From Magnetospirillum sp. (GTDB taxonomy: Bacteria; Pseudomonadota; Alphaproteobacteria; CACIAM-22H2), in assembly GCA_027532905.1 (NCBI GenBank), contig JAPZUA010000004.1:244570-308569 (forward strand): a stretch of 64,000 bases of DNA, given 5' to 3'. Below, in pieces: positions 1 to 56,365 of this stretch. A model generated the notes under the pieces. It saw only the letters and a program-made list of their open reading frames with translations. It made no database searches and was not told the DNA's origin. How positions within the stretch are numbered: position 1 is the first letter of the stretch; the number at the start of each line of letters is the position of its first letter. Made by a program: the position numbers and the translations under genes.

Positions 1-758
1 GCCGCAAAAAACTCGTCGAGCTCGCGTTCCAGGATCGCGTGATCCGCGACGCGGCGGCCCTGCACTACACGGCCGAAGAGGAGATGCGGCTTGCGGCCCC
101 TTACGTGCATGGGGCACCCGGCGTGGTGGTGCCCAACGGGCTCGATATGCGGGCCTACGCGGACGTGCCGGCACGCGGCGCTTTTTTTGCCGCATATCCC
201 GAATTGGCCGGCACCAAGCCGATCCTGTTTTTGAGCCGCATCAATTTCAAGAAGGGGCTCGACGTGCTGATCCCGGCCTTCGCGAAGGCTTTGGCGGCGG
301 ATCCGGCTTTACGTCTGGTGGTTGCAGGCCCCGACGACGGCTATCTCGCCACCGCCAAGGGTTTTGCCGCATCGGCCGGTGTCGCCGACAAAGTGCTGTG
401 GCTCGGCATGCTGTCGGGCGAGGCCAAAAAAGCCGCGTTTGCCGACTGCGCGGCGTTCGCGTTGCCGTCGTGGAGCGAAAATTTCGGCATCGCGATCGTC
501 GAGGCGATGGCGTGCGAAGCGCCCGTCATCGTTTCGGACCGCGTGAACATCTGGCGCGAGATCGAAGCGGCGGGCGCCGGTCTCGTCTCGCCGCCGGAAG
601 TAGATGCGGTCGCCGCGCACATCTTGCTTCTGGCAGGCGATCCAATGCGCGGTCGGCGCATGGGCGAAGCAGGGCGCAAGCTTGCGGCGGCCAAATACGA
701 TTGGGCCACGATCGCGGTCGAACTCGAGCGGGTCTATGCCCGACTGGCGGAAAAATGA
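1..758 (+). CDS. Glycosyltransferase family 4 (GT-B, group 1), C-terminal part; 5' end is outside the window
   Basis: The reading frame is open to the window edge. It carries the GT4 C-terminal signature ...SWSENFGIAIVEAMACEAPVIVSD.... The TGA stop at 756-758 overlaps the next start (ATGA). Confidence 0.8.
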   Translation, partial: RKKLVELAFQDRVIRDAAALHYTAEEEMRLAAPYVHGAPGVVVPNGLDMRAYADVPARGAFFAAYPELAGTKPILFLSRINFKKGLDVLIPAFAKALAADPALRLVVAGPDDGYLATAKGFAASAGVADKVLWLGMLSGEAKKAAFADCAAFALPSWSENFGIAIVEAMACEAPVIVSDRVNIWREIEAAGAGLVSPPEVDAVAAHILLLAGDPMRGRRMGEAGRKLAAAKYDWATIAVELERVYARLAEK

Positions 759-1594
759 GTCCGGTTTCGGTCATTGTACTCACGTTCAATTCCGAGGCCA
801 CGATCGGCGCCACGCTCGATTCGGTCGTGGGCCTCAGCGACGACGTGCATGTCGTCGATTCAGGCTCGACCGACGGCACCCTTGCGATAATCGCGGCCAA
901 GGGTGCGAAGCTCGCGTCGCATCCGTTCGAAAACTACGGCGCGCAGCGCAACTGGGCCATCGACAATCTGCCATTGCAGCACGCCTGGCAGCTCCATCTC
1001 GACGCCGACGAGCGCGTAACACCCGCACTCAAGGCCGAGATCGAAAAGCTGCTGGCGGGCAATGTGGACGCGGAGATCGGCGGCTTCTACATCCCGCGCC
1101 TCGTGCATTTTCATGGGCAAGCGCTCAAACATGGCGGCATGTACCCGATCTACCATATGCGCCTGTTCCGCAAGGGGCGCGGGCGCTGCGAAGCGCGCAA
1201 ATACGACCAGCATTTCCACGCGCAAGGGCGCAGCGAAAAACTGCAGCACCCGATGATCGACGACATTCGCCTGAGCTTCGGCGAATGGACCACGCGGCAC
1301 AATCGCTGGGCCGATGCGGAGGTCGACGAGATCCTCAATCCCGGCGGGGGTGGCGTGATCCAGGCGGGCTCGGGCGATCCGGTCGCCGAGAAGCGCCGCG
1401 CGCGCGGCTGGTACTATCGCGCACCCTTGTTCTGGCGCGCGTTTATGTTGTTTTTCTATCGCTACGTCGTGAAGCTCGGTTTCCTCGACGGCAAGGAAGG
1501 TCTCATCTTCTACGTGCTGCAGACTTTGTGGTTCCGCTTCCTCGTCGATGCCAAGCTCTACGAACGCCGCAAGCAGATCGAGGCCCGCAAATGA
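755..1594 (+). CDS. Glycosyltransferase family 2 (WaaE/KdtX-like LPS-core type)
   Basis: ATG at 755 overlaps the upstream stop. The GT-A N-terminus reads MSPVSVIVLTFNSEATIGATLDSV..VVDSGSTDGT, followed by LDADE. The C-terminal GFLDGKEGLIFYVLQTLWFRFLVDAK resembles WaaE/KdtX-type enzymes, recognised from memory. Confidence 0.8.
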   Translation: MSPVSVIVLTFNSEATIGATLDSVVGLSDDVHVVDSGSTDGTLAIIAAKGAKLASHPFENYGAQRNWAIDNLPLQHAWQLHLDADERVTPALKAEIEKLLAGNVDAEIGGFYIPRLVHFHGQALKHGGMYPIYHMRLFRKGRGRCEARKYDQHFHAQGRSEKLQHPMIDDIRLSFGEWTTRHNRWADAEVDEILNPGGGGVIQAGSGDPVAEKRRARGWYYRAPLFWRAFMLFFYRYVVKLGFLDGKEGLIFYVLQTLWFRFLVDAKLYERRKQIEARK

Positions 1595-2523
1595 ACGATC
1601 CGTGCCTGTTCTGCGGGGCCGTCACACACATGGCCTTCCCCGACATCGTCGACAATCGCTTCGGCTCGCCAGGCCATTATGCGGTCCATGCGTGTGCGGC
1701 CTGCGGGGGTCGCCAGACCTTCCCGCGCCCCGACCAGGCAGCGCTCAAATCCCTCTATGAGCGCTACTACAATTACGGCGGCAAGACCGACGGTGCGTAC
1801 GCTTCGCTGCGCGAAAAATTTCTGTTCTCGCCTTTCTACCGACTGATGCTCGCACTCGACGGGGACGTATCTTTTCATCTCCAGCGAGGCAAAGGCCGCT
1901 TGCTCGATATCGGCTGCAACGAAGGGCGCGGCTTGCGGCTCTACAAGGCCAACGGCTTCGCCGCCGAAGGGCTCGAGCTCAATGCCCATGCGGCCGCCGC
2001 CGCCCGCGCGCACGGCTTCGCAGTTCACGAAAAACTCATCGAAGATTTTGCGCCCGCACAGCCCTACGACGTCGCCGTGCTCTCGAACGTGCTCGAGCAT
2101 GCGCCCGATCCGCGCGCGATGCTGGCGCACGTCGCGCGCATCCTCGCCCCCGGCGGCGAAGTTTGGATCAGCCTGCCCAACGTCGAATCCGCGATGGCCA
2201 AACTGTGCGGGCGCGATTGGATCAACTGGCATGTGCCGTTCCACATCGTGCATTTCAGCAGCACACGCCTCGAAAAACTTCTGGCCGAAGCGGGCTTCGA
2301 AGTGAAGGCGTCGCGCAATGTCACGCCGGCTTTGTGGGTCGCCCAATCGCTGATCGCCTGGACCTGGCGGCGCGATGCATCCGCCGCCATCCGCCTGCAG
2401 CGCAAGGCACCGTTGGTCGCAGGCCTTATGGCGATCGCGCGCGGGCTCTTCTTCCCGCTGTTGTGGGCGTGGACTGCGAGCGGGCGCGGCGATTGCCTCG
2501 TCGTGCGGGCCCGCAAACGCTGA
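1591..2523 (+). CDS. Class I SAM-dependent methyltransferase with N-terminal Cys4 zinc ribbon
   Basis: ATG at 1591 overlaps the upstream stop (ATGA). It has CLFCG...CAACG cysteine pairs, motif I LLDIGCNEGRG, and VLSNVLEHAPDP / LAPGGEVWISLPN. Confidence 0.8.
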   Translation: MNDPCLFCGAVTHMAFPDIVDNRFGSPGHYAVHACAACGGRQTFPRPDQAALKSLYERYYNYGGKTDGAYASLREKFLFSPFYRLMLALDGDVSFHLQRGKGRLLDIGCNEGRGLRLYKANGFAAEGLELNAHAAAAARAHGFAVHEKLIEDFAPAQPYDVAVLSNVLEHAPDPRAMLAHVARILAPGGEVWISLPNVESAMAKLCGRDWINWHVPFHIVHFSSTRLEKLLAEAGFEVKASRNVTPALWVAQSLIAWTWRRDASAAIRLQRKAPLVAGLMAIARGLFFPLLWAWTASGRGDCLVVRARKR

Positions 2524-3716
2524 TGCGCATTCTCGTGCACGATTTTCCGGGCCATGCCTTCCCGGTGCAGCTGTCGCGGGCACTGGCCCATCGCGGCCAT
2601 ACGGTGCGCCATCTGTGTTTTCCGGCCTTCCAAGCGCCCAAGGGGCCGCTGGCACGCCGGGCGGACGATCCGGCGAATTTCGAGGTTGCCTTCCTCGAAC
2701 TCGACGCGCCGTTCGAGAAGCACAGCTTCGTCAAACGCTGGCGCCAGGAGCGCGAGCTTGCGGGGGCCACGCAAGCCGCCATCGCAAGCTTCGCGCCCGA
2801 CGCCGTGCTCGCGGGCAATGCCCCGCTCGATGTGCAGGCCGCCAGCTATCGCGGGGCGCGTGCGGCCAATGCCGCATTTGTGTATTGGCTGCAGGATCTC
2901 GTCGGCTTCGCGATGCGCAAGATTTTGGGGCGCAAGCTCGGGCTTCCCGGCACGCTCGTCGGCATGGCCTACGAAGCCAAAGAGCGGCGGCTCATGTGCA
3001 AGTCCGATGCAGTCGTCGCGATCACCGACGATTTCCGGCCGCTGCTGGCAAAGTGGGGCGTCGCTGCCGAGCGCCTGCATATCGTCGAAAACTGGGCGGC
3101 ACGCGAGGAAGTGGCCGCAGCCTCCCGCGACAATGCGTGGGCGCGCGAACATGGTCTCGTCGGCCGCACGGTATTTCTCTATTCGGGCACGCTCGGCCTC
3201 AAGCACGATCCGAGCCTGCTGCTCGATCTGGCGAAATCGCAGCCCGACGCCGCCCTCGTCGTGAATTCCGAAGGGCTGGGAGCCGACTGGCTGCGCGCAC
3301 GCGGACCTGAAGCGCCCAACATGCTTATCCTGCCGTTCCAGCCGTTCGAGCGTTTGGGCGAAGTGCTGGCCTCCGCCGACATCCTGGTCGCGATCCTCGA
3401 GCCCGATGCGGGCGTGTTCTCGGTCCCGTCCAAAGTGCTCACCTATCTGTGCGCGGGGCGCCCGCTGCTGGTTGCTATCCCGCCTGAAAATCTCGCCGCC
3501 CGCCTCGTGCTGCGCGAGGGCGCGGGCCTCGCGGCCGCACCTGGGGATCGTGCGGCGTTTCTGGCGGCCGCGTCCCGCCTTGCGGCGGAGCCTGCGCTGC
3601 GCGCGGCCATGGGCGCCAAGGCGCTGGACTACGCCGCTAAGACCTTCGATATTGCGGCGATCGCCCGGCGATTCGAGGCGATTCTCGAACAGGCGATTCG
3701 GACGCGAAAAAAGTGA
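2523..3716 (+). CDS. Glycosyltransferase family 4 (WcaI-like)
   Basis: ATG at 2523 overlaps the upstream TGA by 1 nt. The N-terminus is MRILVHDFPGHAFPVQLSRALAHRGH. The C-terminal GT-B half reads ...LYSGTLGLKHD..., ...VPSKVLTYLCAGRPLL.... Confidence 0.75.
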   Translation: MRILVHDFPGHAFPVQLSRALAHRGHTVRHLCFPAFQAPKGPLARRADDPANFEVAFLELDAPFEKHSFVKRWRQERELAGATQAAIASFAPDAVLAGNAPLDVQAASYRGARAANAAFVYWLQDLVGFAMRKILGRKLGLPGTLVGMAYEAKERRLMCKSDAVVAITDDFRPLLAKWGVAAERLHIVENWAAREEVAAASRDNAWAREHGLVGRTVFLYSGTLGLKHDPSLLLDLAKSQPDAALVVNSEGLGADWLRARGPEAPNMLILPFQPFERLGEVLASADILVAILEPDAGVFSVPSKVLTYLCAGRPLLVAIPPENLAARLVLREGAGLAAAPGDRAAFLAAASRLAAEPALRAAMGAKALDYAAKTFDIAAIARRFEAILEQAIRTRKK

Positions 3717-4327
3717 GCCAATCCTTCGACAGCGACCGTTTCTACGAAGCGGAATTCGTCGAGCATCGCGCAGTCGCGGAAGCCACGCACCGCGCGCTCA
3801 AGGCAGCGTTCAAACAGCTGCTGGCCCAGGCTGTCGCAACGCTCCAGAACGGCGGCAAGATCCTGCTGTTCGGCAATGGCGGCTCAGCCGCCGACGCCCA
3901 GCATTTGGCGACCGAACTCACGGTTCGCTACATCAAAAATCGCCGCGCACTCGCCGCGATCGCCCTTACGACCGACAGCTCGGCCCTCACCGCAATCGGC
4001 AACGACATCGGCTTCGAGCGGCTATTCTCGCGCCAGATCGAAGCACTCGGCCGTGCCGGCGATCTTGCGATCGGCATCACGACGTCGGGCGCTTCGCCCA
4101 ACGTGCTCGAAGCCTTTCGCGTGGCGCGCAAGATGGGCATCGTCGTCGCCTGCCTCACCGGCAAGGACGGCGGCAAGGCCAAGGACCTTGCCGACATCGC
4201 GCTGATCGTGCCGTCCAACACCACGTCGCGCATCCAGGAGATGCACATCACGCTGGGCCAGATGATGTGCGGCGGCATCGAGCATGCGCTCGGCATCGCC
4301 GACGGCCCCGATCCCTACAGCCCCTAG
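3713..4327 (+). CDS. gmhA: D-sedoheptulose-7-phosphate isomerase (phosphoheptose isomerase)
   Basis: GTG at 3713 overlaps the upstream stop (GTGA). SIS-domain motifs present: LLFGNGGSAADAQHLATEL, GITTSGASPNV, QEMHITLGQ. Confidence 0.9.
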   Translation: MSQSFDSDRFYEAEFVEHRAVAEATHRALKAAFKQLLAQAVATLQNGGKILLFGNGGSAADAQHLATELTVRYIKNRRALAAIALTTDSSALTAIGNDIGFERLFSRQIEALGRAGDLAIGITTSGASPNVLEAFRVARKMGIVVACLTGKDGGKAKDLADIALIVPSNTTSRIQEMHITLGQMMCGGIEHALGIADGPDPYSP

Positions 4328-4346
4328 AAAACCGGGGACGTCCGCA

Positions 4347-5810
4347 ATGACCGTGAATGCCGATCTCGTGGCGCTGGTGCCCAAGCTCGCAGGTGCGCGC
4401 ATCGTGTGCATCGGCGATCTGATGCTCGACCGTTTCGTCTACGGGCGCGCCGAGCGCATCTCGCCCGAAGCGCCGATCCCGGTCTTGCGCATCGACCGCG
4501 AAGAATCGATGCTCGGCGGTGCCGGCAACGTCGTGCGCAACATCGTCGGGCTCGGCGGACATGTCGAGTTCGTGTCGGTCGTGGGCCAGGACACGGCGGG
4601 CCGCGAAGTGTTGAGCCTCGTCGCGGGGCTCGAGGGCGTGGAGCCGCATCTGTTGGTCGAACGCGACCGGCCGACCACGATCAAGACGCGCTTCGTCGCC
4701 GGTCACCAGCAGATGCTGCGCGCGGACAGCGAAACCAGTGCTCCCATCGCCGCCTCGACCGCCGAAGACGCGGCGCGCCTCGTTGCCCAGGCCATGAAGG
4801 ATTGCGGCGTCGTCGTGCTGTCCGACTACGCCAAGGGCGTGCTGCTGCCCGACCAGATCGCCGCGATCGTGAAGGCCGCCAAAGCCGCCAAGCGCATCGT
4901 GATCGTCGATCCCAAGGGCCGCGACTATGCGCGCTACAAAGGGGCCACGATCCTCACGCCCAATCGGCGCGAACTGGCCGATGCCACCGGGCTGCCGGCC
5001 GAAGGGGACAAGGGCGTTGAGCTTGCAGCACGCCGCCTGCTCAAAGTCACGGAAGCGGAAGCGATCGTCGTCACGCGCGGGGCCGAAGGCATGAGCATCG
5101 TGCCCGCCAAGGGCAAGGTCGAACATCTGCCCGCCCTCGCGCGCGAAGTGTTTGACGTGTCGGGGGCCGGCGATACGGTCATCGCGACACTCGCAACCGC
5201 ACTGGCAGGCGGGCTCTCGCTGCTCGAGGCCGCACGCCTGGCTTCGGTCGCGGCCAGCGTGGTCGTGGCCAAGCTCGGCACGGCGGTCGCCTACTCGGCC
5301 GATCTCGTGCGCGCACTCCGCCACGACGACATCGCGGTCAGCGAAAACAAATTCGTCACCGATGCGCAGGCGGTCGACCAGGTCGCGATCTGGCGCCGCC
5401 AGGGTCTGCGCGTCGGCTTCACGAACGGCTGCTTCGACCTCCTGCATCCCGGCCACGTCTCGCTGATTGCGCAAGCGCGCAGCGCTTGCGACCGGCTCGT
5501 GATCGGCCTCAATTCGGATGCCTCGATCAAGCGCCTCAAGGGCGAGAGCCGCCCCGTGCAGGGCGAAGCGGCCCGCGCCGCCGTGCTCGCGTCGCTCGGC
5601 CAAGTCGATCTCGTGGTCGTGTTCGCCGAAGACACGCCGATCAAACTCATCAAGGCGCTGAAGCCCGAGATCCTCGTCAAAGGTGCCGACTACACCAAAG
5701 ACAAAGTCGTGGGTGCGAGCGAGGTCGAAGGCTGGGGCGGCAAAGTGGTGCTGGCCAAACTCGTCGAAGGCCAGAGCACCACGGCCACGATCCGCAAGAT
5801 CGGGCGCTAG
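4347..5810 (+). CDS. hldE: Bifunctional D-beta-D-heptose 7-phosphate kinase / D-beta-D-heptose 1-phosphate adenylyltransferase
   Basis: ATG at 4347 lies 19 nt after gmhA. An N-terminal pfkB-type kinase (DVSGAGDTVIATLA) is fused to a C-terminal cytidylyltransferase (GFTNGCFDLLHPGHVSLI). Confidence 0.92.
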   Translation: MTVNADLVALVPKLAGARIVCIGDLMLDRFVYGRAERISPEAPIPVLRIDREESMLGGAGNVVRNIVGLGGHVEFVSVVGQDTAGREVLSLVAGLEGVEPHLLVERDRPTTIKTRFVAGHQQMLRADSETSAPIAASTAEDAARLVAQAMKDCGVVVLSDYAKGVLLPDQIAAIVKAAKAAKRIVIVDPKGRDYARYKGATILTPNRRELADATGLPAEGDKGVELAARRLLKVTEAEAIVVTRGAEGMSIVPAKGKVEHLPALAREVFDVSGAGDTVIATLATALAGGLSLLEAARLASVAASVVVAKLGTAVAYSADLVRALRHDDIAVSENKFVTDAQAVDQVAIWRRQGLRVGFTNGCFDLLHPGHVSLIAQARSACDRLVIGLNSDASIKRLKGESRPVQGEAARAAVLASLGQVDLVVVFAEDTPIKLIKALKPEILVKGADYTKDKVVGASEVEGWGGKVVLAKLVEGQSTTATIRKIGR

Positions 5811-7084
5811 ATCGGCGCTTCGAGTTTGCCGGCGACCGGCAAAGGCGCAAGAGCGTTCGAAGCCGGGCGCGGCAGCCAGCGCGCCATCAGCCGCTCGATG
5901 TTCTCGAGCCCGTCGAGCAGACCCGGAATAACGGCAGCCGACGGCGGCGCTTGATGGGCAAGTGCCCGCAAGGCAGCCACCATCGCCTCGGCGTCGCGCA
6001 CGCCGTCGTCGGGCAGCATGCGCGTGAGGCCCACGCTCTCGGCCCGCTCGGCGCGGATGAACTGCTCGAGGCGCGGCGCCACGCGCGGCACGATCACGGC
6101 CGGTTTGTCGAACGAAAGAATTTCGCAGAAGGTGTTGTAGCCGCCCATCGCGACGATGCCGGCCGCGCGCGTGATGAGCTGCTCGAGATGCGCATCGAAC
6201 GTGATCGCCTCGACCCGCGACGACAGGCGCGCCGCACGCTCGAGAAACTCCGACTGTTTTTCCGACTGCATGAACGGGCCCAGCACCAGCAAGGCGCGGT
6301 GCGGCAGCGCCGCCCCGCTTTCGTAGGCGCGCAAGACCCAGTCGATCAGCGCATCGCCGTCGCCGCCGCCGCCGGTGGTCACGAGCACGTAGGGCTGCTC
6401 GCGCGCTTCGGCCATTTCGACGGTCGAGCGCGGATTGCCCTGCGGCATCATGCGGTGCAGATAGCCCGTATAGCTGATCTTGCGGCGCACGCTCTGCGGA
6501 ATCGCGAGGCCCGCAAGCGGGTCGCAGATCTGCGGCAGGCCATAGATCCAGATGTCGTCGTAGAGATCGCGCAAGGCGGGCACCGCCTTCTTGCGCTTCC
6601 ATTCGGGCCCCAGCAAAGCGGGATCGTCCATCACGTCGCGCAGGCCCAGCACCAGCGGCACGCCGCGCCGCTTGAGGAAATGCAGCGTCTCGGAAACTTC
6701 GCCGCGCAAACCCAGCGGCTCCTTGTCGACGAGGAAAAGATCGGGATCGAACGCCTCGGCCGTGTGGCGGATGATCGAGCCGCGGATCGACAGGGTCTGG
6801 GCGATATCGATATGCAGATTGAGCGAAGTGTATTCGCCGTTACGCAGCTTGATGACGCCCGGAATGCGCACAAAATCGACACGAGCCTTGAAGTCGAACG
6901 AGCCGATGATCGGCGAGCCCGACAGGATCAGCACCGAAAGATCCTTGTCGGCCTGCACCATCGCGTGCGCGATCGCGCGGCAGCGGCGCAGATGGCCGAG
7001 GCCCATCGTGTCGTGGCTGTAGATGAGCACGCGGCGGTCTTTGCGGAACAACCGGCGCGTCGCACTCCCCGTATCGCTCGCCAT
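5807..7084 (-). CDS. Predicted glycosyltransferase, MurG/GT28-like C-terminal domain (COG4671-type)
   Basis: ATG at 7084 is preceded by GGGAGA. Motifs seen: YSHDTMGLGHLRRC, VTTGGGGDG, AMGGYNTFCEIL. A longer start at 7138 is possible. Confidence 0.7.
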   Translation of the reverse strand: MASDTGSATRRLFRKDRRVLIYSHDTMGLGHLRRCRAIAHAMVQADKDLSVLILSGSPIIGSFDFKARVDFVRIPGVIKLRNGEYTSLNLHIDIAQTLSIRGSIIRHTAEAFDPDLFLVDKEPLGLRGEVSETLHFLKRRGVPLVLGLRDVMDDPALLGPEWKRKKAVPALRDLYDDIWIYGLPQICDPLAGLAIPQSVRRKISYTGYLHRMMPQGNPRSTVEMAEAREQPYVLVTTGGGGDGDALIDWVLRAYESGAALPHRALLVLGPFMQSEKQSEFLERAARLSSRVEAITFDAHLEQLITRAAGIVAMGGYNTFCEILSFDKPAVIVPRVAPRLEQFIRAERAESVGLTRMLPDDGVRDAEAMVAALRALAHQAPPSAAVIPGLLDGLENIERLMARWLPRPASNALAPLPVAGKLEAPI

Positions 7085-7348
7085 CCCCGTCTCCCGCGCT
7101 GAAAGCGTGCCGCACCCCTTCGGCACGCCGCAACGCAAGGCACCTTATGCGAGATTGGACGCCGCTGCCAACAAGCATATTGCGGCGCAACCGCCACGAT
7201 AAGGTCCTTAAATACCGTATTTGAATGGCTTCATGACAATGTCGCATCCGGGCGGTGGCAATACCTTGATTTCTTGCCCCCGGCGGCACGCTCCATATAG
7301 TCTCAGGCCACGTACAGCACGCGCAAGACTCGCGAAAAGGCCGAAAGA

Positions 7349-10039
7349 ATGCCGACAAGTTCCGGAGATGGGCTCGAGCGTTCGATCTATCGCTTCGTGG
7401 TGCGATTCTCGCTGAAGGACACGATCCTCATCTGCGCGCTCGTCGCCCTTGCGCAGGTCTTCTACTACATCTCCCTCGACCTGCCCAAAAACATCATGAA
7501 CCAGGGCATCCAGGGCAACGGGATCGCGTTCCCGGTCGATGTCGCGCGCCTCGGCATCCTGTCGCTCGACCAGGTCGGGTATCTGATGTGGTTGTGCTTT
7601 CTGTTCCTGCTGGCCGTGCTCGTCAACGGAGGCCTCAAGCAGTTCGTCAATTCGCTCAAAGGCAAGCTCGGCGAAAGGCTGCTGCGGCGCCTGCGCTATC
7701 TTTTGATGGCGCGTATACTGCGCTTTCCGGTGGCGCATTTCCGCAAGACTTCATCGGGCGAACTGATCCCGATGCTGACGGCCGAAGTCGAACAGATCGG
7801 CGGCTTCATGGGCGACGCGTTCGTCCAGCCTTTGATGCAGGCGGGCATGCTGCTTACGATCGCGATCTTTCTGTTCGCGCAGAATCCGATCATGGGCTTC
7901 GCCGCGATCTCGCTGTTTCCGATCCAGGCCTACATCGTGCCGGTGCTGCAAAAGCGCGTCAAAGAACTCGGCAAGGAGCGCGTCAAGACGGTGCGAAAAA
8001 TCTCCGAGCGCATCGGCGAAACGGTGGGCGGCATCCAGGAAGTGCGCACGCTCGGCACGGCGGCTTGGGAGCGCGCCGACTATACCGAGCGCTTCGGCAC
8101 GGTCTACCGCATCCGCTTCGCGATCTACCAGCGCAAGTCGCTGGTCAAATTTATCAACAACACGCTGAACCAGTGCGCACCGCTGATGTTCTACGCGATC
8201 GGCGGCTATCTCGTGATCCACGGTTCGTTGAGCGTGGGCGCCCTCGTGGCCGCCCTGTCCGCGCACAAGGACATGACGGCACCCTGGAAGGAACTGCTCG
8301 ACTACTACCAACAGTCGCAAGACGCCCAGCAGAAATACGAGCAGGTCGTCGAACAGTTCCAGCCCGACAATCTGCTGCCCGCAGGGCTGCACGCGCCCGC
8401 CGAAGCGGCAGCGCAAACCTTCGACGGACCGATCGTGGCCAACGCCCTCACGGTGCAGGAAGACGCCCAGACCAAGCTCCTCGAGGGGGTGAGCTTCGAA
8501 CTTCCGCTCGGAACGCATGTGGCGCTGGTCGGGCCGTCGGGCGGCGGGCGGGAGGCTTTGGCGATGACGCTTGCACGCCTCTACCAACCGAGCAGCGGCA
8601 CCTTGCGCATCGGCAGCCGCGACATGGCGCAGATTTCCGACGCCGATCTCGGCGCGCGCATGGGCTATGTCGGGCCCAACGCGTATGTGTTTTCGGCGAG
8701 CTTGCGCGACAATCTCGCCTACGGCCTGCGCCAGCGCGTGCTGGCCCCGCACGAAGATGCCGCGCGCGAGAAGCTGCTTGCGGAAGCAGCACGCGCGGGC
8801 AACCTGCCGCTGGACGTGGAAGCGCAATGGATCGACTACACGGCCGCTGGGGCTGCTGACGCTGCCGATTTCGACCGAGTTGCGACCGCGGTTCTGGCCA
8901 AGGTCGATCTCGCCGAAGACGTGTTCTTGCTCGGCCTGCGCGGCCAAATCGATCCCATACGCCGCAAAAATGTAGCCGATGCGATCTTGACGGCGCGTGC
9001 CGCATTCCGCCAACGCCTGACGGGTGCGCAAGCCGACCCGACCTTGAAGGGCCTCGTCGAAACCTTCGATCCCGAGCGCTACAACGACAATGCGACCTTG
9101 GGCGAAAACCTGCTGTTCGGGACCGCCCTCGACGCCAGCCTTGCGGGCGACGCACTCGCGGCCCAGCCGGACTTCCGGCGCATCTTGGACGAAACGGGCC
9201 TCGGTGCGGAACTGCCGATCATGGGCCGCAAGGTCGCCGAAACCATGGTCGAACTCTTCGCCGATCTGCCGGCCGGCCACGAGTTTTTCGACCGTTTCAG
9301 CTTCATCGCGGCCGACGATCTGCCGGTCTTCCAGACCGTGCTGGCGCGTACGGTGCCGCTTGCCGACGGCAGTCTGCCCGCCGACATCAGCGCCGAGGAC
9401 CGCGCGCGTCTGGCAAGCCTGCCGCTGAAGCTCGTCGATGCGCGCCATCGCCTCGGCCTCATCGACAAAGCGTTCAAGGAACGCGCACTCGCGGCGCGCA
9501 AGGCGCTGCGCGAAAAACTGCCCGAGAAACTGCGCACAAAGATCGCGTTTTTCGACCCGGACATCTACAACGCCGCCGCCTCGATCCAGGACAACATCCT
9601 GTTCGGGCGCATCGCCTACGGCCAAGCCAAAGCGCAGGCAAGCGTGGGGTCTGCCATTCGCGAAGTGCTTGAAGCGCTGGGTTTGCGCGAGCGCGTGTTC
9701 GAAATCGGCCTCGATTTCCAGGTCGGCGTGGCGGGCGGACGCCTGTCCGCCCCGCAGCGTCAGAAGCTTGCGATCGCGCGCGCCCTCACCAAACGGCCCG
9801 ACCTGCTGGTGCTCAATGACGCGGTCGCAGTCCTCGACCGCGCGGGGCAAGCGCGCCTGCTCGAGAGCCTCGCCGCCGCCGCCGCCGGCACCACGCTCGT
9901 GTGGGCGACGCAAGATACGGCAAGTGCCGCGCGCTTCGCGCGCGTGATGGTGTTTGCCGAAGGCCGTCTCGTCCAGGACGGCACCTACGAAGATCTCGCG
10001 GCGCGCGACGGCACGCTCAAAGAGTTGGTGGCCGCCTAG
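7349..10039 (+). CDS. ABC exporter-type protein (6-TM ABC_membrane domain plus NBD) with degenerate catalytic motifs and a large insertion in the NBD
   Basis: The N-terminal ~330 aa are hydrophobic and look like a type-I exporter TMD. NBD motifs are recognisable but substituted: Walker A GPSGGGREA, signature LSAPQ, Walker B LLVLNDA, and no His in the H-loop (VWATQDTAS). About 357 aa separate the Q-loop region from the signature. Confidence 0.8.
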   Translation: MPTSSGDGLERSIYRFVVRFSLKDTILICALVALAQVFYYISLDLPKNIMNQGIQGNGIAFPVDVARLGILSLDQVGYLMWLCFLFLLAVLVNGGLKQFVNSLKGKLGERLLRRLRYLLMARILRFPVAHFRKTSSGELIPMLTAEVEQIGGFMGDAFVQPLMQAGMLLTIAIFLFAQNPIMGFAAISLFPIQAYIVPVLQKRVKELGKERVKTVRKISERIGETVGGIQEVRTLGTAAWERADYTERFGTVYRIRFAIYQRKSLVKFINNTLNQCAPLMFYAIGGYLVIHGSLSVGALVAALSAHKDMTAPWKELLDYYQQSQDAQQKYEQVVEQFQPDNLLPAGLHAPAEAAAQTFDGPIVANALTVQEDAQTKLLEGVSFELPLGTHVALVGPSGGGREALAMTLARLYQPSSGTLRIGSRDMAQISDADLGARMGYVGPNAYVFSASLRDNLAYGLRQRVLAPHEDAAREKLLAEAARAGNLPLDVEAQWIDYTAAGAADAADFDRVATAVLAKVDLAEDVFLLGLRGQIDPIRRKNVADAILTARAAFRQRLTGAQADPTLKGLVETFDPERYNDNATLGENLLFGTALDASLAGDALAAQPDFRRILDETGLGAELPIMGRKVAETMVELFADLPAGHEFFDRFSFIAADDLPVFQTVLARTVPLADGSLPADISAEDRARLASLPLKLVDARHRLGLIDKAFKERALAARKALREKLPEKLRTKIAFFDPDIYNAAASIQDNILFGRIAYGQAKAQASVGSAIREVLEALGLRERVFEIGLDFQVGVAGGRLSAPQRQKLAIARALTKRPDLLVLNDAVAVLDRAGQARLLESLAAAAAGTTLVWATQDTASAARFARVMVFAEGRLVQDGTYEDLAARDGTLKELVAA

Positions 10040-10068
10040 CATTTCGGCCCCTCACAAGGAACGAATCC

Positions 10069-10527
10069 ATGTCGCTCAAAGAAGAAACCGAAGCCCTGCG
10101 GCGCATCCCGCTGTTCCAGAATCTGGATCCCGCGAAGCTCAAACTGCTGGCCTTCATGAGCCAGCGTCTGACCTTCGAGCCGGGCCAGGCGGTGTTCGCG
10201 CAAGGCGATCCGGGCGACGCCGCCTATATCGTGCTCGACGGCGAAGCGGTCGTGTCGATCGACGCCCCCAATTCGCGCATCGACATAGCGCGGCTCACGC
10301 GCAACGAGATCGTGGGCGAAATCGCGATCCTGTGCGACGTGCCGCGCACCGCGCACGTGACGGCGGCGGGCGACAAGGCGCTCGTCTGCCTCAAGATCGA
10401 AAAAAACGACTTCATCGGCATGCTGACCGAGTTTCCGAACATGGCGGTCGAAATCATGCGCGAGCTTGCGCGCCGCATCGTCAACACGAACCAGCAGCTG
10501 CGCCAAGCCGTTGCGGCCAAAGGCTGA
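10069..10527 (+). CDS. Stand-alone cyclic-nucleotide-binding domain protein (no HTH)
   Basis: ATG at 10069 with AAGGA upstream, 29 nt after the ABC gene. CAP-effector pattern: RIPLFQNLDPAKLKLLA, GDPGDAAYIVLDGEA, and phosphate-binding cassette GEIAIL..PRTAHV. The protein ends after the C-helix at 152 aa. Confidence 0.85.
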   Translation: MSLKEETEALRRIPLFQNLDPAKLKLLAFMSQRLTFEPGQAVFAQGDPGDAAYIVLDGEAVVSIDAPNSRIDIARLTRNEIVGEIAILCDVPRTAHVTAAGDKALVCLKIEKNDFIGMLTEFPNMAVEIMRELARRIVNTNQQLRQAVAAKG

Positions 10528-10531
10528 GAAG

Positions 10532-11017
10532 ATGAGCCGTCTCGACAGTTTCATTCGCCGCCTGCAGGCCCAGCGCATCGGCCTCGACTGGGCCTGCGCC
10601 GAGCTCGGCCCCGGCCTCGTACTCGAACTTGGGCTCGGCAACGGGCGTACCTACGACCATCTGCGCAGTCGGCTCGGGACCGCGCGCGCGATCCACGCCT
10701 TCGACCGCGCCGTCGCGGCCCATCCCGATTGCGTGCCGCCGGAAGATCGGCTGCATCTGGGCGACATTCGCGACACGCTGCCGAGCTTTGCCGACAGATT
10801 TCCGCACAGCACCGCCCTCGTCCATTCCGACGCGGGCTCCGGCGTCGCGGCCGAAACCGCGGCCCTGGCCGCTTTCATCTCGCGCCATCTTCCCGCGATC
10901 CTGGCGCCGAACGGACTCGTCGTCGCCGACCAGCCGATGCCGAGCGAAGCACTCGCCGAGTTGCCGCCGCCCGTCGGCATCAATCCGGGGCGCTATTTTT
11001 TCTACCGCCTGCGTTAA
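10532..11017 (+). CDS. Small Rossmann-fold / class I SAM-methyltransferase-like protein (function unknown)
   Basis: ATG at 10532 lies 4 nt after the previous stop. The glycine-rich LELGLGNGRTYDHL resembles MTase motif I. I recognise no other family signature. Confidence 0.55.
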   Translation: MSRLDSFIRRLQAQRIGLDWACAELGPGLVLELGLGNGRTYDHLRSRLGTARAIHAFDRAVAAHPDCVPPEDRLHLGDIRDTLPSFADRFPHSTALVHSDAGSGVAAETAALAAFISRHLPAILAPNGLVVADQPMPSEALAELPPPVGINPGRYFFYRLR

Positions 11018-11865
11018 GGAACAAAATCGATCGCGACGGGCACGTGGTCGGAAGGCTGCGTCCAGTCGCGCGCGCCACGCAGAATATGGAAGGCTTTGAT
11101 CTTGGACGCGAGGTCGGGTGTAGCCCAAATATGGTCGAGGCGGCGGCCGCGATCGGATTTGCGCCAGTCGCTGTTGCGGTAGCTCCACCACGTGTAGAGC
11201 CGTTCGGGCTCCGGATGGCGCAGACGCGCCACGTCGACCCAATCGCCCGCCGCCTGCATGCCGCCCAACGCCGCGACTTCGATCGGCGTGTGGCTCACCA
11301 CATCGAGAAGCTGCTTGTGGCTCCAAACATCGGTCTCGCACGGCGCGATATTGAGATCGCCGACAAGAATCGCCGATCCCTTGCGGCCGCGTTTCTTCCA
11401 CACGGCAGTCTGGGCTGCGACGAAATCGAGCTTATGCTTGAATTTGTCGTTGGCGACCGGGTCGGGCACGTCGCCGCCGGCCGGCACATAGACATTGTGG
11501 AGTGCGATGCCGCCCGGCAATTCGGCCGAAGCATGGCGGCAATCCTCGCGCCCGCAGTGGTGCAAGGGCGCAGGCGATGAAATCGGCACGCGCGACAGGA
11601 TCGCAACCCCGTTGTAGCTCTTCATACCGTGCGCATAACGGTGCGTGAAACCAAGCTCGGCGAGCCCGTCATGCGGGAACTGGTCGTCCGGGCACTTGGT
11701 TTCCTGCAGGCACAGAATGTCCGGCCGCACTTGCGCCACCAGCTTGGCGACCAGCGGCAGGCGCAGGCGCACCGAATTGATGTTCCAGGTGACCAGCCGC
11801 AAAGCGCCGCGCGCGGGCTTCGGCAACGGGTCGGTTTCGACGTAAGGGGACGGCGTTTGGCTCAT
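11014..11865 (-). CDS. xthA: Exodeoxyribonuclease III
   Basis: Motifs: LRLVTWNINSVRLRL, DILCLQETK, GDLNIAP, SDHVPV. The start is taken at MSQTPSP (ATG 11865). The longer start at 11904 would abut a terminator hairpin. Confidence 0.9.
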   Translation of the reverse strand: MSQTPSPYVETDPLPKPARGALRLVTWNINSVRLRLPLVAKLVAQVRPDILCLQETKCPDDQFPHDGLAELGFTHRYAHGMKSYNGVAILSRVPISSPAPLHHCGREDCRHASAELPGGIALHNVYVPAGGDVPDPVANDKFKHKLDFVAAQTAVWKKRGRKGSAILVGDLNIAPCETDVWSHKQLLDVVSHTPIEVAALGGMQAAGDWVDVARLRHPEPERLYTWWSYRNSDWRKSDRGRRLDHIWATPDLASKIKAFHILRGARDWTQPSDHVPVAIDFVP

Positions 11866-11902
11866 CTGGCCCGTATAGCCGAGATTCGAAAAACACGGGT
11901 CC

Positions 11903-11944
11903 AAAAAGGGAGACGCCCGAATGGAGGGGGTCCATTCGGGCGTC
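11903..11944 (-). terminator. Rho-independent terminator (14-bp perfect stem, CCCCC loop, U-tract)
   Basis: Minus strand reads GACGCCCGAAUGGA-CCCCC-UCCAUUCGGGCGUC followed by UCCCUUUUU. Confidence 0.75.
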
Positions 11945-12020
11945 AGGCTCCTAGGGGAAGGAGCGTGTCGGGCCGCCAGGGGAGACGGCCCAGACGACGA
12001 CCCGGGGGCGGATCGTCACT
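11903..12020 (-). ncRNA. Candidate small RNA or structured 3' element: four tandem hairpins, each with a C-rich loop
   Basis: Minus-strand hairpins lie at plus-strand coordinates 11996-12017 (loop GCCCCC), 11970-11991 (loop UCUCCCCUGG), 11947-11964 (loop UCCCCU) and 11912-11944 (loop CCCCC, terminator). A G-U pair in the first stem would be an A-C mismatch on the plus strand, which favours a minus-strand RNA. Confidence 0.4.
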
Positions 12021-12090
12021 CCTTGCAAATGGCCCCGCTCCTTCAATTCAACAAGAGGGTCGCGCTGAAATAAACACCGAAAAGCGGTAT

Positions 12091-12834
12091 CTAAATACCA
12101 TTTTCGACGATTCGGCCGAATTCAGCAAATATAGCGGCCGAAAACGGGTCGGTTTTGACGTGCCATTCGGGGTGCCATTGCAGGCCGAGGGCAAAACCAG
12201 GGCCGCCGGTCCAGCGTACGGCCTCGATCGTTCCGTCTTCGTGCGTGGCCTCGACGGCCAATCCGTCGGCCAACCGGTCGATCGCCTGGCCGTGCAGCGA
12301 ATTCACAAACGCCCGCCCGTCGTCGCCATTGAGCCGCTGCAGGAGGCCGCCGGGTGCAAGATCGACCCAATGGCGATGGGCGTAGCGGGCATCCATGTCG
12401 TCGCTTTCCGGGGCGCGGTGGTCGATGCGGCCGGGCAGTTCCTGGACATGCTGGTGCAGGCTGCCGCCCAGTGCCACGTTCAGCTCCTGGTGGCCGCGGC
12501 ATAGGCCCAGCACCGGCAGCCCACGCGCCACGGCCGCGCGCAGCAGCGGCAAGGTGGTGGCGTCGCGCGCCGGATCATGCAGCGTGCCGGGCCGCGACCG
12601 GCCGCCATATTCGCCCGGCTCCACGTTGGACGGGCTGCCGGTCATCACAAGCCCATCAAGGCGCGACAGGATCGCGGCAATGTTCTGGGCAGAGCCGATC
12701 GCCGGCAGCAGTACAGGAACGGCACCCATGCCCGCGACCACAGCTTCGACATATTGCGCACGCACGATGTGCTGCAGGCCACGCGGCCCCTGCTGCAGGC
12801 ATGCACTGATGCCGATGACGGGCGGTTTCTTCAT
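12091..12834 (-). CDS. Gamma-glutamyl-gamma-aminobutyrate hydrolase family protein (peptidase C26 / class I glutamine amidotransferase)
   Basis: Start at MKKPPVIGISA. Nucleophile elbow LGLCRGHQELNV, and LQWHPEW near the C-terminus. Confidence 0.85.
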   Translation of the reverse strand: MKKPPVIGISACLQQGPRGLQHIVRAQYVEAVVAGMGAVPVLLPAIGSAQNIAAILSRLDGLVMTGSPSNVEPGEYGGRSRPGTLHDPARDATTLPLLRAAVARGLPVLGLCRGHQELNVALGGSLHQHVQELPGRIDHRAPESDDMDARYAHRHWVDLAPGGLLQRLNGDDGRAFVNSLHGQAIDRLADGLAVEATHEDGTIEAVRWTGGPGFALGLQWHPEWHVKTDPFSAAIFAEFGRIVENGI

Positions 12835-12956
12835 GGGTCCAACCGCTAGCATACCGCCCGGATTCGCGCAAAAAGGCCGATTGATCCTGCGCAAAGTGCC
12901 GCCCCTGCCCGGACTGGTAGATTGGGCTTCTCGATTGAAAAAGGGGGTATCGATCC

Positions 12957-13352
12957 ATGAACCACTTCCATGCGGCCGTTTGGCTCGACCATGCGCACGC
13001 GAAGATCTTCCATTTCGACGCGCATGTTTTCGAAGCCAAGAACGTCAAATCCGCGCATGCGGATGCACATCTGCACCACAAAGCAGGAGCCGTGGGTGCA
13101 GGCCACGCCGCCGAGGACCCCAAATACTACGCAAGCGTGGCAACCGCCTTGGCGGACGCCCAGGAAATCCTCGTGACCGGCCCAGGGTCGGCGAAGACCG
13201 TGTTCGGCAAATATCTTGCCGACCACAATCCGGATCTCGCCAAACGCATCGTCGAGACGACGGCGAGCGACCATCCGAGCGACGGCGAAATCGTCGCGAT
13301 GGCGCGCAAGCATTTCAAGATCATCGACCGCACGACGCCGCAGCGTTCGTAA
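12957..13352 (+). CDS. Conserved hypothetical protein, His-rich N-terminus (resembles proteins annotated 'translational machinery protein')
   Basis: ATG at 12957 is preceded by AAAGGGGG. The protein is 131 aa and contains MNHFHAAVWLDHAHAKIFHF... and ILVTGPGSAKT. The family name is from memory only. Confidence 0.65.
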   Translation: MNHFHAAVWLDHAHAKIFHFDAHVFEAKNVKSAHADAHLHHKAGAVGAGHAAEDPKYYASVATALADAQEILVTGPGSAKTVFGKYLADHNPDLAKRIVETTASDHPSDGEIVAMARKHFKIIDRTTPQRS

Positions 13353-13422: not shown

Positions 13423-14418
13423 TTACTTGGCGTGGGCGGCTTCTGCGTCGCCGCGCGTCTTGTAGAGCGAGTAGAGGATGCCCGAGGTGATCATCGTCAC
13501 GGTCACCGACAGCGACAGCCAAGCCGGGAACTTGCCGATGATGCCGACCAGGAAGATTTTGCAGCCGATGAACACGAGCACGCCCGCCAGCGCGTATTTG
13601 AGATAGCGGAAGCGGTGGATCATCGCGGCGAGCGCGAAGTAAAGCGAGCGCAGACCCAGGATCGCGAAGATGTTCGACGTGTACACGATGAATGGGTCGG
13701 TCGTGATCGCGAAGATCGCAGGCACCGAGTCGACCGCGAAAATCAGGTCGACCGCTTCGACCAGCATCAAGCACAAGAACAGCGGCGTGGCCCAACGAAC
13801 CATCTTGCCCGTAACGGGATCGGGCTTCTGCACGAAGAAATCCTGGCCGTGCAGCTCTTCGGTCACGCGCATGCGCTTCTTGAGGAAGTTCAGCACGGGG
13901 TTTTCGCCGATGTTTTCTTCCTTGTCGGCCATGATCAGCATCTTCACGCCCGTGAAGACGAGGAACGCGCCGAAGATGTAGAGCACCCAGCTGAATTCCG
14001 AGACGAGGGCAGCCCCGAGCGCAATCATCGTGCCGCGCATGAAGATCACGCCGATGATGCCCCAGAACAGCACGCGGTGCTGGTATTTGCGGGGGACCGC
14101 GAAATAGGTGAAAATCATCGAAATAGCGAAGACGTTGTCGAGCGACAGCGACCATTCGACGAAGAAGCCCGTGTAGTATTCAAGGGCCGACTGCTGGCCC
14201 ATGTACCACCACACCCAGCCGCCGAACGCCATGGCGAGCGCGAAATAGAAGCCCGACAGCTTCAAGCTCTCGGCGACTTCGATCTCTTTGTTTTCCTTGT
14301 GCAGCACGCCAAGGTCGAACACCAGCAATGCGACGACGATGGACAGGAAGCCCACCCACATCCACACGGGCTTGCCCAAAAATTCGTTTGCGACCAGAAA
14401 ATCCATTTGCTCCATCCT
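13423..14418 (-). CDS. TerC/Alx family integral membrane protein
   Basis: Motifs: FVEWSLSLDNVFAI, LVEAVDLIFAVDSVPAIFAIT, YTSNIFAILGLRSLYF. Start is at MEQMDF (14418) or MDF (14409). Confidence 0.9.
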   Translation of the reverse strand, partial: RMEQMDFLVANEFLGKPVWMWVGFLSIVVALLVFDLGVLHKENKEIEVAESLKLSGFYFALAMAFGGWVWWYMGQQSALEYYTGFFVEWSLSLDNVFAISMIFTYFAVPRKYQHRVLFWGIIGVIFMRGTMIALGAALVSEFSWVLYIFGAFLVFTGVKMLIMADKEENIGENPVLNFLKKRMRVTEELHGQDFFVQKPDPVTGKMVRWATPLFLCLMLVEAVDLIFAVDSVPAIFAITTDPFIVYTSNIFAILGLRSLYFALAAMIHRFRYLKYALAGVLVFIGCKIFLVGIIGKFPAWLSLSVTVTMITSGILYSLYKTRGDAEAAHAK

Positions 14419-14612
14419 CAAAAGGCACCGCGGCCGCCGGGTATCCCGGGCGGCGCGAACTCGTTCCACTATGTCCCATGGAAGTCCGACATCACGGCGC
14501 CAACGGAACTCTCCTCCCCATCGGGACAAAAGAAGAGACCGGAAAACGCGCCGCCAGAGGAGCCCGGACTGTTGCAGCGCAACAAGTAGGGTTGATCCTG
14601 CCGCAATGCAAG
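14419..14612 (-). promoter_or_regulatory. Long structured 5' leader of the TerC gene; possible yybP-ykoY (Mn2+)-like riboswitch
   Basis: A possible promoter CTTGCA-N17-CTACTT lies at 14584-14612. The leader contains UGGGGAGGAG and GGGACAUAG, which resemble the GGGGAGUAG and UUGACAUA core motifs. A 9-bp hairpin GCCGCC(C)GGG-AUA-CCCGGCGGC lies about 20 nt upstream of the SD. I could not confirm the full fold. Confidence 0.3.
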
Positions 14613-23587: not shown

Positions 23588-23588
23588 C

Positions 23589-29332: not shown

Positions 29333-29458
29333 CGATTTTCCTTCAGAAACCTGCGCATTTTGCTCGCACTGCGATTCCAGGACAAAGCAATAGGCGCTCG
29401 CGCCAAAAGACGATAGAAAAACGTTGTTTTACGCCACTTGCGAAAACAGGCTCGTTCG

Positions 29459-33041: not shown

Positions 33042-35361
<2,320 letters not shown>

Positions 35362-35386
35362 TGCTTGCTCTTCTAGCCCTGTCGGA

Positions 35387-48918: not shown

Positions 48919-48923
48919 GTCGT

Positions 48924-50129: not shown

Positions 50130-50168
50130 TGCGTTTTCCGTTTCTTGTTTGGCGGGTAAAAGGACGCG

Positions 50169-53051: not shown

Positions 53052-53078
53052 GTCAGTGCCTTTTAGGACGTAAGACGG

Positions 53079-53951: not shown

Positions 53952-53952
53952 G

Positions 53953-55149: not shown

Positions 55150-55241
55150 TGTGCGATCCAGTCGGTTGGCGGTGGCCGAAGGCGGCTCGAGAGCGGGCGG
55201 CCTTGAAGTCGCAAAAAATCGCGGTACGTCGCTAGGTTAGT

Positions 55242-55278
55242 CCGGGGCAGGGTCCGCTTGCAACGGTACCTGCCCCGG
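55242..55278 (-). other. Stem-loop between mdh and sucC
   Basis: A 10-bp stem CCGGGGCAGG...CCTGCCCCGG encloses an inner 3-bp helix. No U-tract follows. Confidence 0.5.
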
Positions 55279-55291
55279 TGCGACCTGCAAG

Positions 55292-56365
<1,074 letters not shown>

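Follow-up and report, generated by a model that had tools for sequence, protein, structure and literature searches.

A cyclic-nucleotide-binding protein paired with a degenerate ABC exporter-like protein: a candidate membrane module of Rhodospirillales-type bacteria

Introduction

What drives or gates the transmembrane domain (TMD) of a protein shaped like an ATP-binding cassette (ABC) exporter when every catalytic motif of its nucleotide-binding domain (NBD) is off consensus and its gene is followed by one for a bare cyclic-nucleotide sensor? The question is raised by a locus in a stretch of 64,000 nucleotides (nt) from Magnetospirillum sp. (assembly GCA_027532905.1, contig JAPZUA010000004.1, positions 244,570 to 308,569), which we call the window and to which coordinates refer unless the locus of a relative is named. 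Three genes follow one another on its + strand: 7349-10039, encoding an ABC-like protein of 896 amino acids (aa); 10069-10527, encoding a cyclic nucleotide monophosphate (cNMP)-binding protein of 152 aa; and 10532-11017, encoding a methyltransferase-like protein of 161 aa. This layout, with spacers of 29 nt and 4 nt, had been described in an earlier reading made from the letters alone (hereafter the sequence-only reading) and is borne out by the coordinates of the open reading frames (ORFs).

Wherever a characterised ABC exporter has a degenerate site, the energy comes from a second, active one; a large, strongly conserved family of lone half-transporters in which both sites would be degenerate raises the question of what drives or gates the TMDs. 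An added platform within the NBD and an obligate cyclic-nucleotide sensor, both described below, sharpen it. To compare the locus with its relatives, the species representatives of GTDB were scanned, giving at least 594 matches, most of them in Rhodospirillales, from which 80 loci were retained; the neighbours could be assessed in 79 of them, the remaining one lying at a contig end.

The ABC-like protein and its nucleotide-binding domain

The 896-aa protein is predicted to adopt the type IV (ABCB/MsbA-like) exporter fold. Its TMD (residues 1-340, nt 7349-8368, + strand) comprises six long helices and is defined by a PF00664 match in Pfam (residues 61-304, E 8.6e-28), by an AlphaFold2 (AF2) model and by Foldseek; the model, built on 63 homologues, has a pLDDT of 84.9 and a pTM of 0.77, and Foldseek relates it with probability 1.00 to MsbA, TmrAB, Atm1 and P-glycoprotein. 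The NBD follows in two parts on the same strand, the first (residues 341-464, nt 8369-8740) carrying positions 1-90 of the PF00005 profile and the second (residues 746-896 and the stop codon, nt 9584-10039) placed by motif alignment. The PF00005 match (E 1.3e-16) is split in the same manner, residues 378-478 covering positions 1-90 of 137 and the rest lying beyond an insert. No peptidase domain was found in the protein, and its N-terminus leads directly into the first transmembrane helix, an architecture that is not of the PCAT/HetC type.

Among curated families, TIGR02203 (MsbA) is the best match for the TMD and the start of the NBD, with 219 bits against a cutoff of 602, and no curated NCBIfam model reaches its cutoff for this protein. 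The window holds a separate, canonical MsbA gene (23457-25370, + strand; 637 aa; 596 bits against the same cutoff), whose Walker A, Walker B, signature and H-loop motifs all match the consensus. We therefore rejected an MsbA identity for the 896-aa protein, and, since the genome has its own canonical MsbA, we do not consider it to be the lipid A flippase. The canonical copy is a useful control from the same genome and served as the reference for the NBD motifs.

Measured against this reference, the 896-aa protein lacks the consensus ATPase motif set. Its Walker A reads GPSGGGRE where MsbA has GPSGGGKT (residues 395-402, nt 8531-8554), its Q-loop VGPN instead of VTQE, its signature LSAPQ instead of LSGGQ (nt 9743-9757), its Walker B LVLND instead of LLLDE (in LLVLND, nt 9803-9820) and its H-loop TQD instead of AHR, with Q855 (nt 9911-9913) at the position of the histidine. 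The tyrosine of the A-loop is replaced by E371, there being no aromatic residue near the A-loop region, and the D-loop reads AVAVLD. The sequence-only reading had stated that this NBD "lost every catalytic residue", which holds for the 896-aa protein and its close clade but not for distant orthologues, as shown in the next section.

That reading had overlooked a second peculiarity of the domain. An insertion of approximately 280 residues (~465-745, nt 8741-9583, + strand; delimited with hhalign, BLASTP and AF2) separates the Q-loop region from the signature motif and explains the length of 896 aa. The insert consists of two more copies of a unit made of the Q-loop strand plus xxENLLFG, with helices between them; the first unit, in the NBD proper, reads YVGPNAYVFSASLRDNLAYG. 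When sub-alignments were compared with hhalign, repeat 2 matched repeat 3 with an E-value of 1.7e-11 and repeat 1 matched repeat 3 with 1.5e-5, while BLASTP maps residues 430-473 and residues 720-760 onto the same segment of MsbA (455-502). In the AF2 model the pLDDT of the insert is mostly 85-95. With its Q-loop unit present three times, the NBD has been rebuilt, which goes beyond mere inactivation.

Conservation of the family

Full-length homologues are abundant (865-907 aa, 49-97% identity), and the one in a Telmatospirillum metagenome-assembled genome is 97% identical. The 80 retained loci come from Rhodospirillales-type organisms, including Tagaea, Telmatospirillum, Azospirillum, Nisaea, Thalassobaculum and Stellaceae, among others. 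Residues at the motif positions were tallied in 81 orthologues. The Walker A lysine position is occupied by Lys in 55 and Arg in 25, and the following Ser/Thr position by Glu in 35 and Asp in 31. At the Walker B aspartate position we counted Asn in 58, Ser in 13 and Asp in 3; the catalytic glutamate position holds Glu in 53, Asp in 17 and Gln in 9; and the H-loop histidine position holds His in 41 and Gln in 17. The A-loop position is acidic in 80 of the 81, the tyrosine having given way to a conserved acidic pair. Among distant orthologues, therefore, the Walker A lysine, the catalytic glutamate and the H-loop histidine are often kept and the Walker B aspartate almost never, and several fused or distant representatives have no Walker A lysine at all. 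The P-loop glycines, the Leu, Ser and Gln of the signature, the D-loop aspartate and dozens of residues of the insert are fixed across the family.

Against two close relatives, the dN/dS of the ABC gene is 0.03-0.13 over the TMD, the NBD core and the insert (TMD 0.03-0.09; insert 0.03-0.07), and that of the two small genes is 0.06-0.16. By these sequence comparisons, the degeneracy of the NBD is an ancient trait under purifying selection and not a sign of decay. The family is widespread, and literature searches found no published description of it, giving as context only HetC and a review on degenerate nucleotide-binding sites; its degeneracy is strongest in the clade of the window and is not uniform. 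Neither of the two outcomes that the sequence-only reading had named as fatal to it, a gene trio confined to this strain or orthologues with canonical ATPase motifs, is what the survey revealed, although the family is less uniformly degenerate than the window clade.

The cyclic-nucleotide-binding protein and its link to the ABC-like gene

The product of 10069-10527 (+ strand) has PF00027 as its sole domain (residues 35-120; E 1.5e-17, 63.8 bits against a cutoff of 27.5). Its phosphate-binding cassette is intact (V82-GEIAILCDVPRTAHV-97, nt 10312-10359; the cassette itself is GEIAILCDVPRTA), and the Gly-Glu and Arg-Thr-Ala of the cassette, nearly invariant in 80 orthologues, are presumably the residues that bind the ribose and the cyclic phosphate, as in the structures of PKA, CRP and MloK1. 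An N-terminal LKLLAF motif is conserved as well, and the C-terminal region is a helix. The best sequence matches in the PDB are the cyclic-nucleotide-binding (CNB) domains of the PKA regulatory subunit, PKG and CRP. The protein is thus predicted to be a genuine receptor of the cAMP/cGMP type (cyclic AMP or cyclic GMP), an assignment that does not separate the one ligand from the other. Some source annotations name it a CRP/FNR transcription factor, which we rejected: Pfam finds no helix-turn-helix in the 152 aa, and the CRP and FtrB models match it through their N-terminal ~140 positions alone, far under cutoff. A bare sensor domain with an intact cassette and no output domain, as the sequence-only reading had it, is what the domain searches returned.

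The cNMP gene lies 3' of its ABC partner, in the same orientation, in all 79 assessable loci, the median distance between the two being 31 nt, and the pair is intact even where all the other neighbours differ, for instance in L081. The insert alone, used as the query against 1.84 billion representative proteins, gave 780 representative clusters, 166 of them at E <=1e-30. The sequences of 149 of the 150 matches listed were examined for fusions, and among these 149 a C-terminal CNB domain is present in each of the 17 insert-bearing proteins of at least 1000 aa and in 13 fragments. The fused domain aligns end to end with the 152-aa protein (residues ~5-145), including LKLLAF and the phosphate-binding cassette. 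The organisms with fused forms are more distant relatives and include cultured species of Thalassospira as well as Bosea psychrotolerans; the fusions surfaced only through the search with the NBD insert, all 120 listed orthologues of the cNMP protein being stand-alone. On the Rosetta-stone argument, the adjacency in 79 of 79 loci and the fusions make the ABC-like protein and the sensor one functional unit. The sequence-only reading had proposed such a unit, and the neighbourhood survey it had called for sustains this part of the proposal; a fixed trio does not emerge from it, the methyltransferase gene being present in 55 of the 79 loci, and it brings out a glycosyltransferase gene that had been overlooked, present in 71.

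Two fused relatives, P0448 (1206 aa) and P0474 (1156 aa; L086, 8001-11471), join a TMD, a degenerate NBD, a cNMP-binding domain and a GGDEF domain, which suggests that in some lineages the module has an output to cyclic di-GMP signalling. Five fused loci were inspected, and four of them are flanked by genes for cyclases or phosphodiesterases. A class III cyclase gene overlaps the 3' end of the fused gene in L085; two cyclases and a CRP regulator lie beside it in L088; cyclases are found on both sides in the alphaproteobacterial locus L086, together with an Apyc1-like phosphodiesterase of the metallo-beta-lactamase (MBL) type (5803-6573); and an MBL phosphodiesterase gene is directly upstream of it in the Thalassospira locus L084 (5192-5971). 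The MBL proteins of L084 and L086 match PF23023 (Anti-Pycsar Apyc1) and are probably chromosomal cyclic-nucleotide phosphodiesterases. Among the split loci, six of the 80 have a cyclase within 6 kb.

The divergent glycosyltransferase

The gene at 5807-7084 (- strand) diverges from the ABC gene. Source annotations call its product a "predicted glycosyltransferase" and nothing more. Its ORF reaches a TTG at 7138, the likely start being the ATG at 7084. A PF04101 domain occupies the C-terminal part (residues 283-396, E 4e-06), and the AF2 model (pLDDT 82, pTM 0.82) is related by Foldseek, with an E-value of 1e-13, to OleD/OleI, CalG and plant UGTs, that is, to GT1 macrolide and plant UDP-glycosyltransferases; matches to PDB sequences are weak, and TIGR00661 scores under its cutoff. 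These domain, model and fold matches put the predicted enzyme in the GT-B (GT1/GT28-like) class, the fold search giving the class and not the substrate. The nearest GT1 enzymes act on small or lipophilic acceptors.

A glycosyltransferase gene stands divergently upstream of the ABC gene in 71 of the 79 loci, with 62-88% identity. It is more conserved than the ABC protein and is a better-kept partner than the methyltransferase (71/79 against 55/79). In approximately 47 loci it is the first gene of an operon that also encodes two GT4 enzymes, one EpsE/WcaL-like and one BshA/MshA-like, and behind it there is a histidine phosphatase (His_Phos_1) in approximately 20 loci and a second related glycosyltransferase in approximately 25. 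In the clade of the window, the first glycosyltransferase alone is adjacent, and the + strand genes gmhA, hldE, a GT4 and a GT2 lie where most other organisms carry the glycosyltransferase operon. The loci that were inspected showed no polyprenyl-phosphate priming transferase, no Wzx/Wzy and no outer-membrane component.

The methyltransferase

The third gene of the trio (10532-11017, + strand) encodes a class I S-adenosylmethionine (SAM) methyltransferase-like protein, as the sequence-only reading had supposed. It matches PF12692 (Methyltransf_17) over its full length (profile positions 1-159 of 160; E 1.6e-49, 168 bits, the cutoff being 27), the nearest solved structure is PDB 3IHT (E 1.8e-35), and its SAM motif I, ELGLGNG (nt 10625-10645), is invariant in 56 orthologues. 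The gene is absent from the loci of the fused relatives, and we regard this predicted enzyme as an accessory, optional member of the locus. In one locus (L089), the position after the cNMP gene is taken by a class I methyltransferase of another family (Methyltransf_11/23/25), which may have replaced PF12692 as a non-orthologous substitute and is a single hint that methylation may matter for function. A literature search found no paper that mentions the PF12692 family.

Proposed function

The reading that we favour, with moderate confidence, is that the ABC-like protein and its sensor form an ABC-fold translocator or regulator that is gated by a cNMP, does not hydrolyse ATP and is connected with the production of a glycoside or glycolipid. 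The two proteins, of 896 and 152 aa, would be two chains of one conserved membrane module that is a single chain elsewhere. The NBD would have no ATP-hydrolysis chemistry left, and the platform of approximately 280 aa derived from two extra Q-loop units would offer a conserved surface, onto which the 152-aa receptor may dock, as it does covalently in the fused relatives. Occupancy by a cyclic nucleotide would set the association state of the cytoplasmic domains and, through it, the conformation of the TMD, so that the cyclic nucleotide, rather than ATP hydrolysis, probably controls the transporter. The state of the TMD would in turn gate the translocation, or control the biosynthetic complex, of a glycoside or glycolipid made by the divergent glycosyltransferase, whose product might be a glycolipid, a small glycoside or a core oligosaccharide; the PF12692 methyltransferase would be an optional tailoring or accessory enzyme.

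If this is true, cAMP/cGMP signalling in bacteria, where regulators of the CRP type otherwise predominate, would gain a membrane effector that does not act on transcription, and that signalling would be linked to envelope or glycoside production in Rhodospirillales. The proposal can be tested, since the family includes the cultivable Azospirillum, Nisaea and Thalassospira.

Several observations weigh against the proposal. When the 64-kb window was searched by tblastn, with five cyclases and two phosphodiesterases of related loci as queries, neither kind of enzyme was found. Contact between the 896-aa and 152-aa proteins is something that we infer, and CNB-like domains can bind other ligands, such as guanosine tetraphosphate (ppGpp) in HetC (PMC10986499). 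The link to the glycosyltransferase is absent from the loci of the fused relatives and from L081, and it may be clade-specific or merely syntenic; xth, too, is often close by (45 of 80 loci). Orthologues that keep the Lys, Glu and His, and above all P0434 (L089, 1841-5665), with its near-canonical motifs GSGKST and ILILDE and a cNMP gene 15 nt downstream, indicate that some members may bind or hydrolyse ATP. Finally, replacement of the Walker A Thr by Asp or Glu, together with that of the Walker B Asp by Asn, may amount to a compensating swap of magnesium ligands, although the residue combinations of the orthologues show no strict covariation between the two.

A more far-reaching form of the favoured reading, which we put forward only tentatively, is that ATP has been abandoned altogether: binding of a cyclic nucleotide to the CNB subunit, docked on the triplicated Q-loop platform, would be the conformational switch of a ligand-gated ABC channel, flippase or transducer in which both sites are dead, with a logic like that of CFTR and SUR, and which would control the release of a glycoside or glycolipid or of the messenger itself. 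CFTR and SUR are themselves ABC folds that serve as a gated channel or a regulator.

Alternative explanations

The main rival, to which we assign a rather low probability, is that the protein is still an ATP-driven exporter. Either the unusual site, with Lys/Arg-Asp/Glu in Walker A and Asn-Glu/Asp in Walker B, would keep Mg-ATP binding and slow hydrolysis, or the protein would form a heterodimer with a canonical half-transporter encoded elsewhere, and the cNMP protein would do no more than modulate the rate in the manner of the C-terminal domains of MetN, ModC and MalK. In favour of this rival are the fixed glycines of the P-loop, the Ser and Gln of the signature and the Asp of the D-loop, along with the Lys, Glu and His retained in roughly half to two-thirds of the orthologues, and the near-canonical P0434 is still paired with a cNMP gene. 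Known degenerate exporter sites, moreover, bind ATP tightly and are paired with one active site (PMC7756269). A gene for a second half-transporter was found neither in the window locus nor, by ORF clustering, in the 80 GTDB loci, nor in the loci labelled with Pfam, a distant partner being possible. In the window clade the Lys, Ser/Thr, Gln, Asp, Glu, His and A-loop aromatic are all replaced, several fused relatives are without the Walker A lysine, and residues at the catalytic positions drift freely while the neighbouring positions are fixed, all of which speaks against dependence on ATP turnover.

Two further readings are minor. The first, which we consider improbable, is that the module handles the messenger itself: it would carry out efflux or release of cNMP, the CNB domain sensing the cytoplasmic pool for homeostasis or extracellular signalling, and the synteny with the glycosyltransferase would be incidental. 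There are precedents, the eukaryotic ABCC4 and ABCC5 exporting cAMP and cGMP and Rhodospirillum centenum excreting cGMP during encystment. This idea fits the fused relatives, with their translational coupling to class III cyclases and phosphodiesterases or their position beside them, and also the few split loci with a cyclase nearby. However, uphill export needs an energy source that the degenerate NBD seems unable to supply, and it is to the glycosyltransferase rather than to a cyclase that 71 of the 79 split loci are linked.

The second is a Pycsar-like anti-phage module, in which the CNB protein would activate a membrane effector and kill the cell on infection. In PADLOC, the 152-aa protein matches the CNB domains of Pycsar effector models with an E-value of 1e-13, and some relatives adjoin PF00211 cyclases and Apyc1-like enzymes. 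A Pycsar system would pair a PycC cyclase with a CNB-domain effector that carries transmembrane or TIR killing domains, within a defence island. The PADLOC matches are at the level of the domain only, and no cyclase was found in the window. The setting is that of a core chromosome of uniform GC content, with ATP synthase, tricarboxylic acid (TCA) cycle genes, priA, ftsK and msbA, and the synteny extends across the order, with matches in at least 594 species representatives, unlike that of defence islands. We rejected the defence reading on the domain-level matches and the core-chromosome context, and regard it as very improbable. As for a decaying or non-functional ABC gene with coincidental neighbours, to which the off-consensus catalytic motifs might point, we give it virtually no credence, for it is refuted by the low dN/dS in every gene region, the intact frame, the length and insert conserved in hundreds of species, and a partner gene that is conserved or fused.

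Comparison with known systems

The sequence-only reading knew of no described system with this composition, which proved too strong a statement, since HetC and other ABC exporters with a cNMP domain, as well as TIGR03896, are known, though with canonical ATPase sites. HetC of Nostoc PCC 7120 has an N-terminal CNB-type domain that is needed for function and a C39 peptidase, binds ppGpp in vitro and depends on its ATPase glutamate (PMC10986499). It resembles the present module as a type IV exporter with a CNB-type domain, a small-ligand sensor on an exporter; in the present family, by contrast, the sensor either forms a chain of its own or lies at the C-terminus, a peptidase is lacking, the phosphate-binding cassette is the canonical one for cAMP/cGMP, and the degenerate ATPase site is accompanied by the 280-aa insert. 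TIGR03896 (cyc_nuc_ocin; "bacteriocin-type transport-associated protein" of cyanobacteria) likewise denotes a CNB protein without an output domain in an ABC exporter operon. Its members are stand-alone double-CNB proteins with canonical ATPase partners, whereas the 152-aa protein has one CNB domain, scores 44.2 bits against a cutoff of 161 and belongs to another lineage and context.

Degenerate sites are well documented in TM287/288, TmrAB, TAP, CFTR and SUR, where one of the two sites is affected and is paired with an active one (PMC7756269). The fold and the types of substitution are the same here (Glu to Asp or another residue, loss of the H-loop His, an altered signature), but with a lone half-transporter both sites would be degenerate, and the losses extend to the Asp of Walker B and the aromatic residue of the A-loop. 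MsbA (TIGR02203) shares the overall fold, its model score and the separate copy in the window setting it apart, and among solved structures PDB 3IHT represents the PF12692 family, to which the 161-aa protein belongs over its full length with SAM motif I conserved.

Importer ATPases, among them MetN (through its C2 domain), ModC and MalK, are controlled by regulatory domains at the C-terminus. By analogy with them, the ligand-binding domain that directly follows the NBD in the fused relatives could, once liganded, hold the NBDs apart or together. In these three the transporter is an importer whose ATPase is active and whose regulatory fold is unrelated, and what is bound is a transport substrate or EIIA instead of a second messenger. 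What sets the present family apart from the known CNB-ABC systems is the C-terminal or separate sensor, the canonical phosphate-binding cassette, the degeneracy of both sites in a predicted homodimer and the triplicated Q-loop unit.

Organization of the locus and its surroundings

The start of the 152-aa gene is an ATG within ORF 9901-10527, with AAGGA 9 nt ahead of it, and that of the 161-aa gene is an ATG within ORF 10466-11017. A consensus scan found no terminator-like site in the 29-nt or the 4-nt spacer, and the number of + strand promoter and terminator matches that the scan returned within the three genes is not above that in shuffled sequence. The divergent intergenic region (7085-7348, 264 nt) presumably holds both promoters; a sigma-70-like match on its + strand (7274-7301) is no better than chance. 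Just upstream of the glycosyltransferase start, there is a perfect 8-bp inverted repeat, GCGTGCCG ... CGGCACGC, with an 8-nt loop (7105-7128). Rfam has no match across 5500-12500.

On its two sides, the locus is bordered by the divergent glycosyltransferase gene and by a convergent exodeoxyribonuclease III gene (xth; 11014-11904, - strand), whose 3' end overlaps the stop codon of the methyltransferase by 4 nt (11014-11017) with no terminator between them. A convergent xth lies at most 3 kb away in 45 of the 80 related loci, so that part of the local synteny does not reflect a functional link. Before the glycosyltransferase, a + strand run of envelope-sugar genes (398-5810) ends convergently with it, and comprises a GT2 gene (398-1594), a WcaI-like GT4 gene (2163-3716) and two genes of ADP-heptose synthesis, gmhA (3713-4327) and hldE (4284-5810).

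The part of the window from 15429 to 63788 is core chromosome, with TctA/TctC, ftsK, amtB and priA among its genes, a hybrid histidine kinase (29438-31426), the genes of the ATP synthase alpha and beta subunits (33042-36919) and lpd, sucB, sucA, sucC and mdh (47509-56356). The GC content is uniform at 0.61-0.67 and thus gives no sign of an island. Between the locus and this part, an ORF of 131 aa (12957-13352, + strand) encodes a histidine-rich protein (…HAHAKIFHFDAHVFEAKNVKSAHADAHLHHK…) with no match in Pfam or NCBIfam, flanked by a peptidase C26/GATase gene (12091-12894, - strand) and a TerC gene (13423-14529, - strand).

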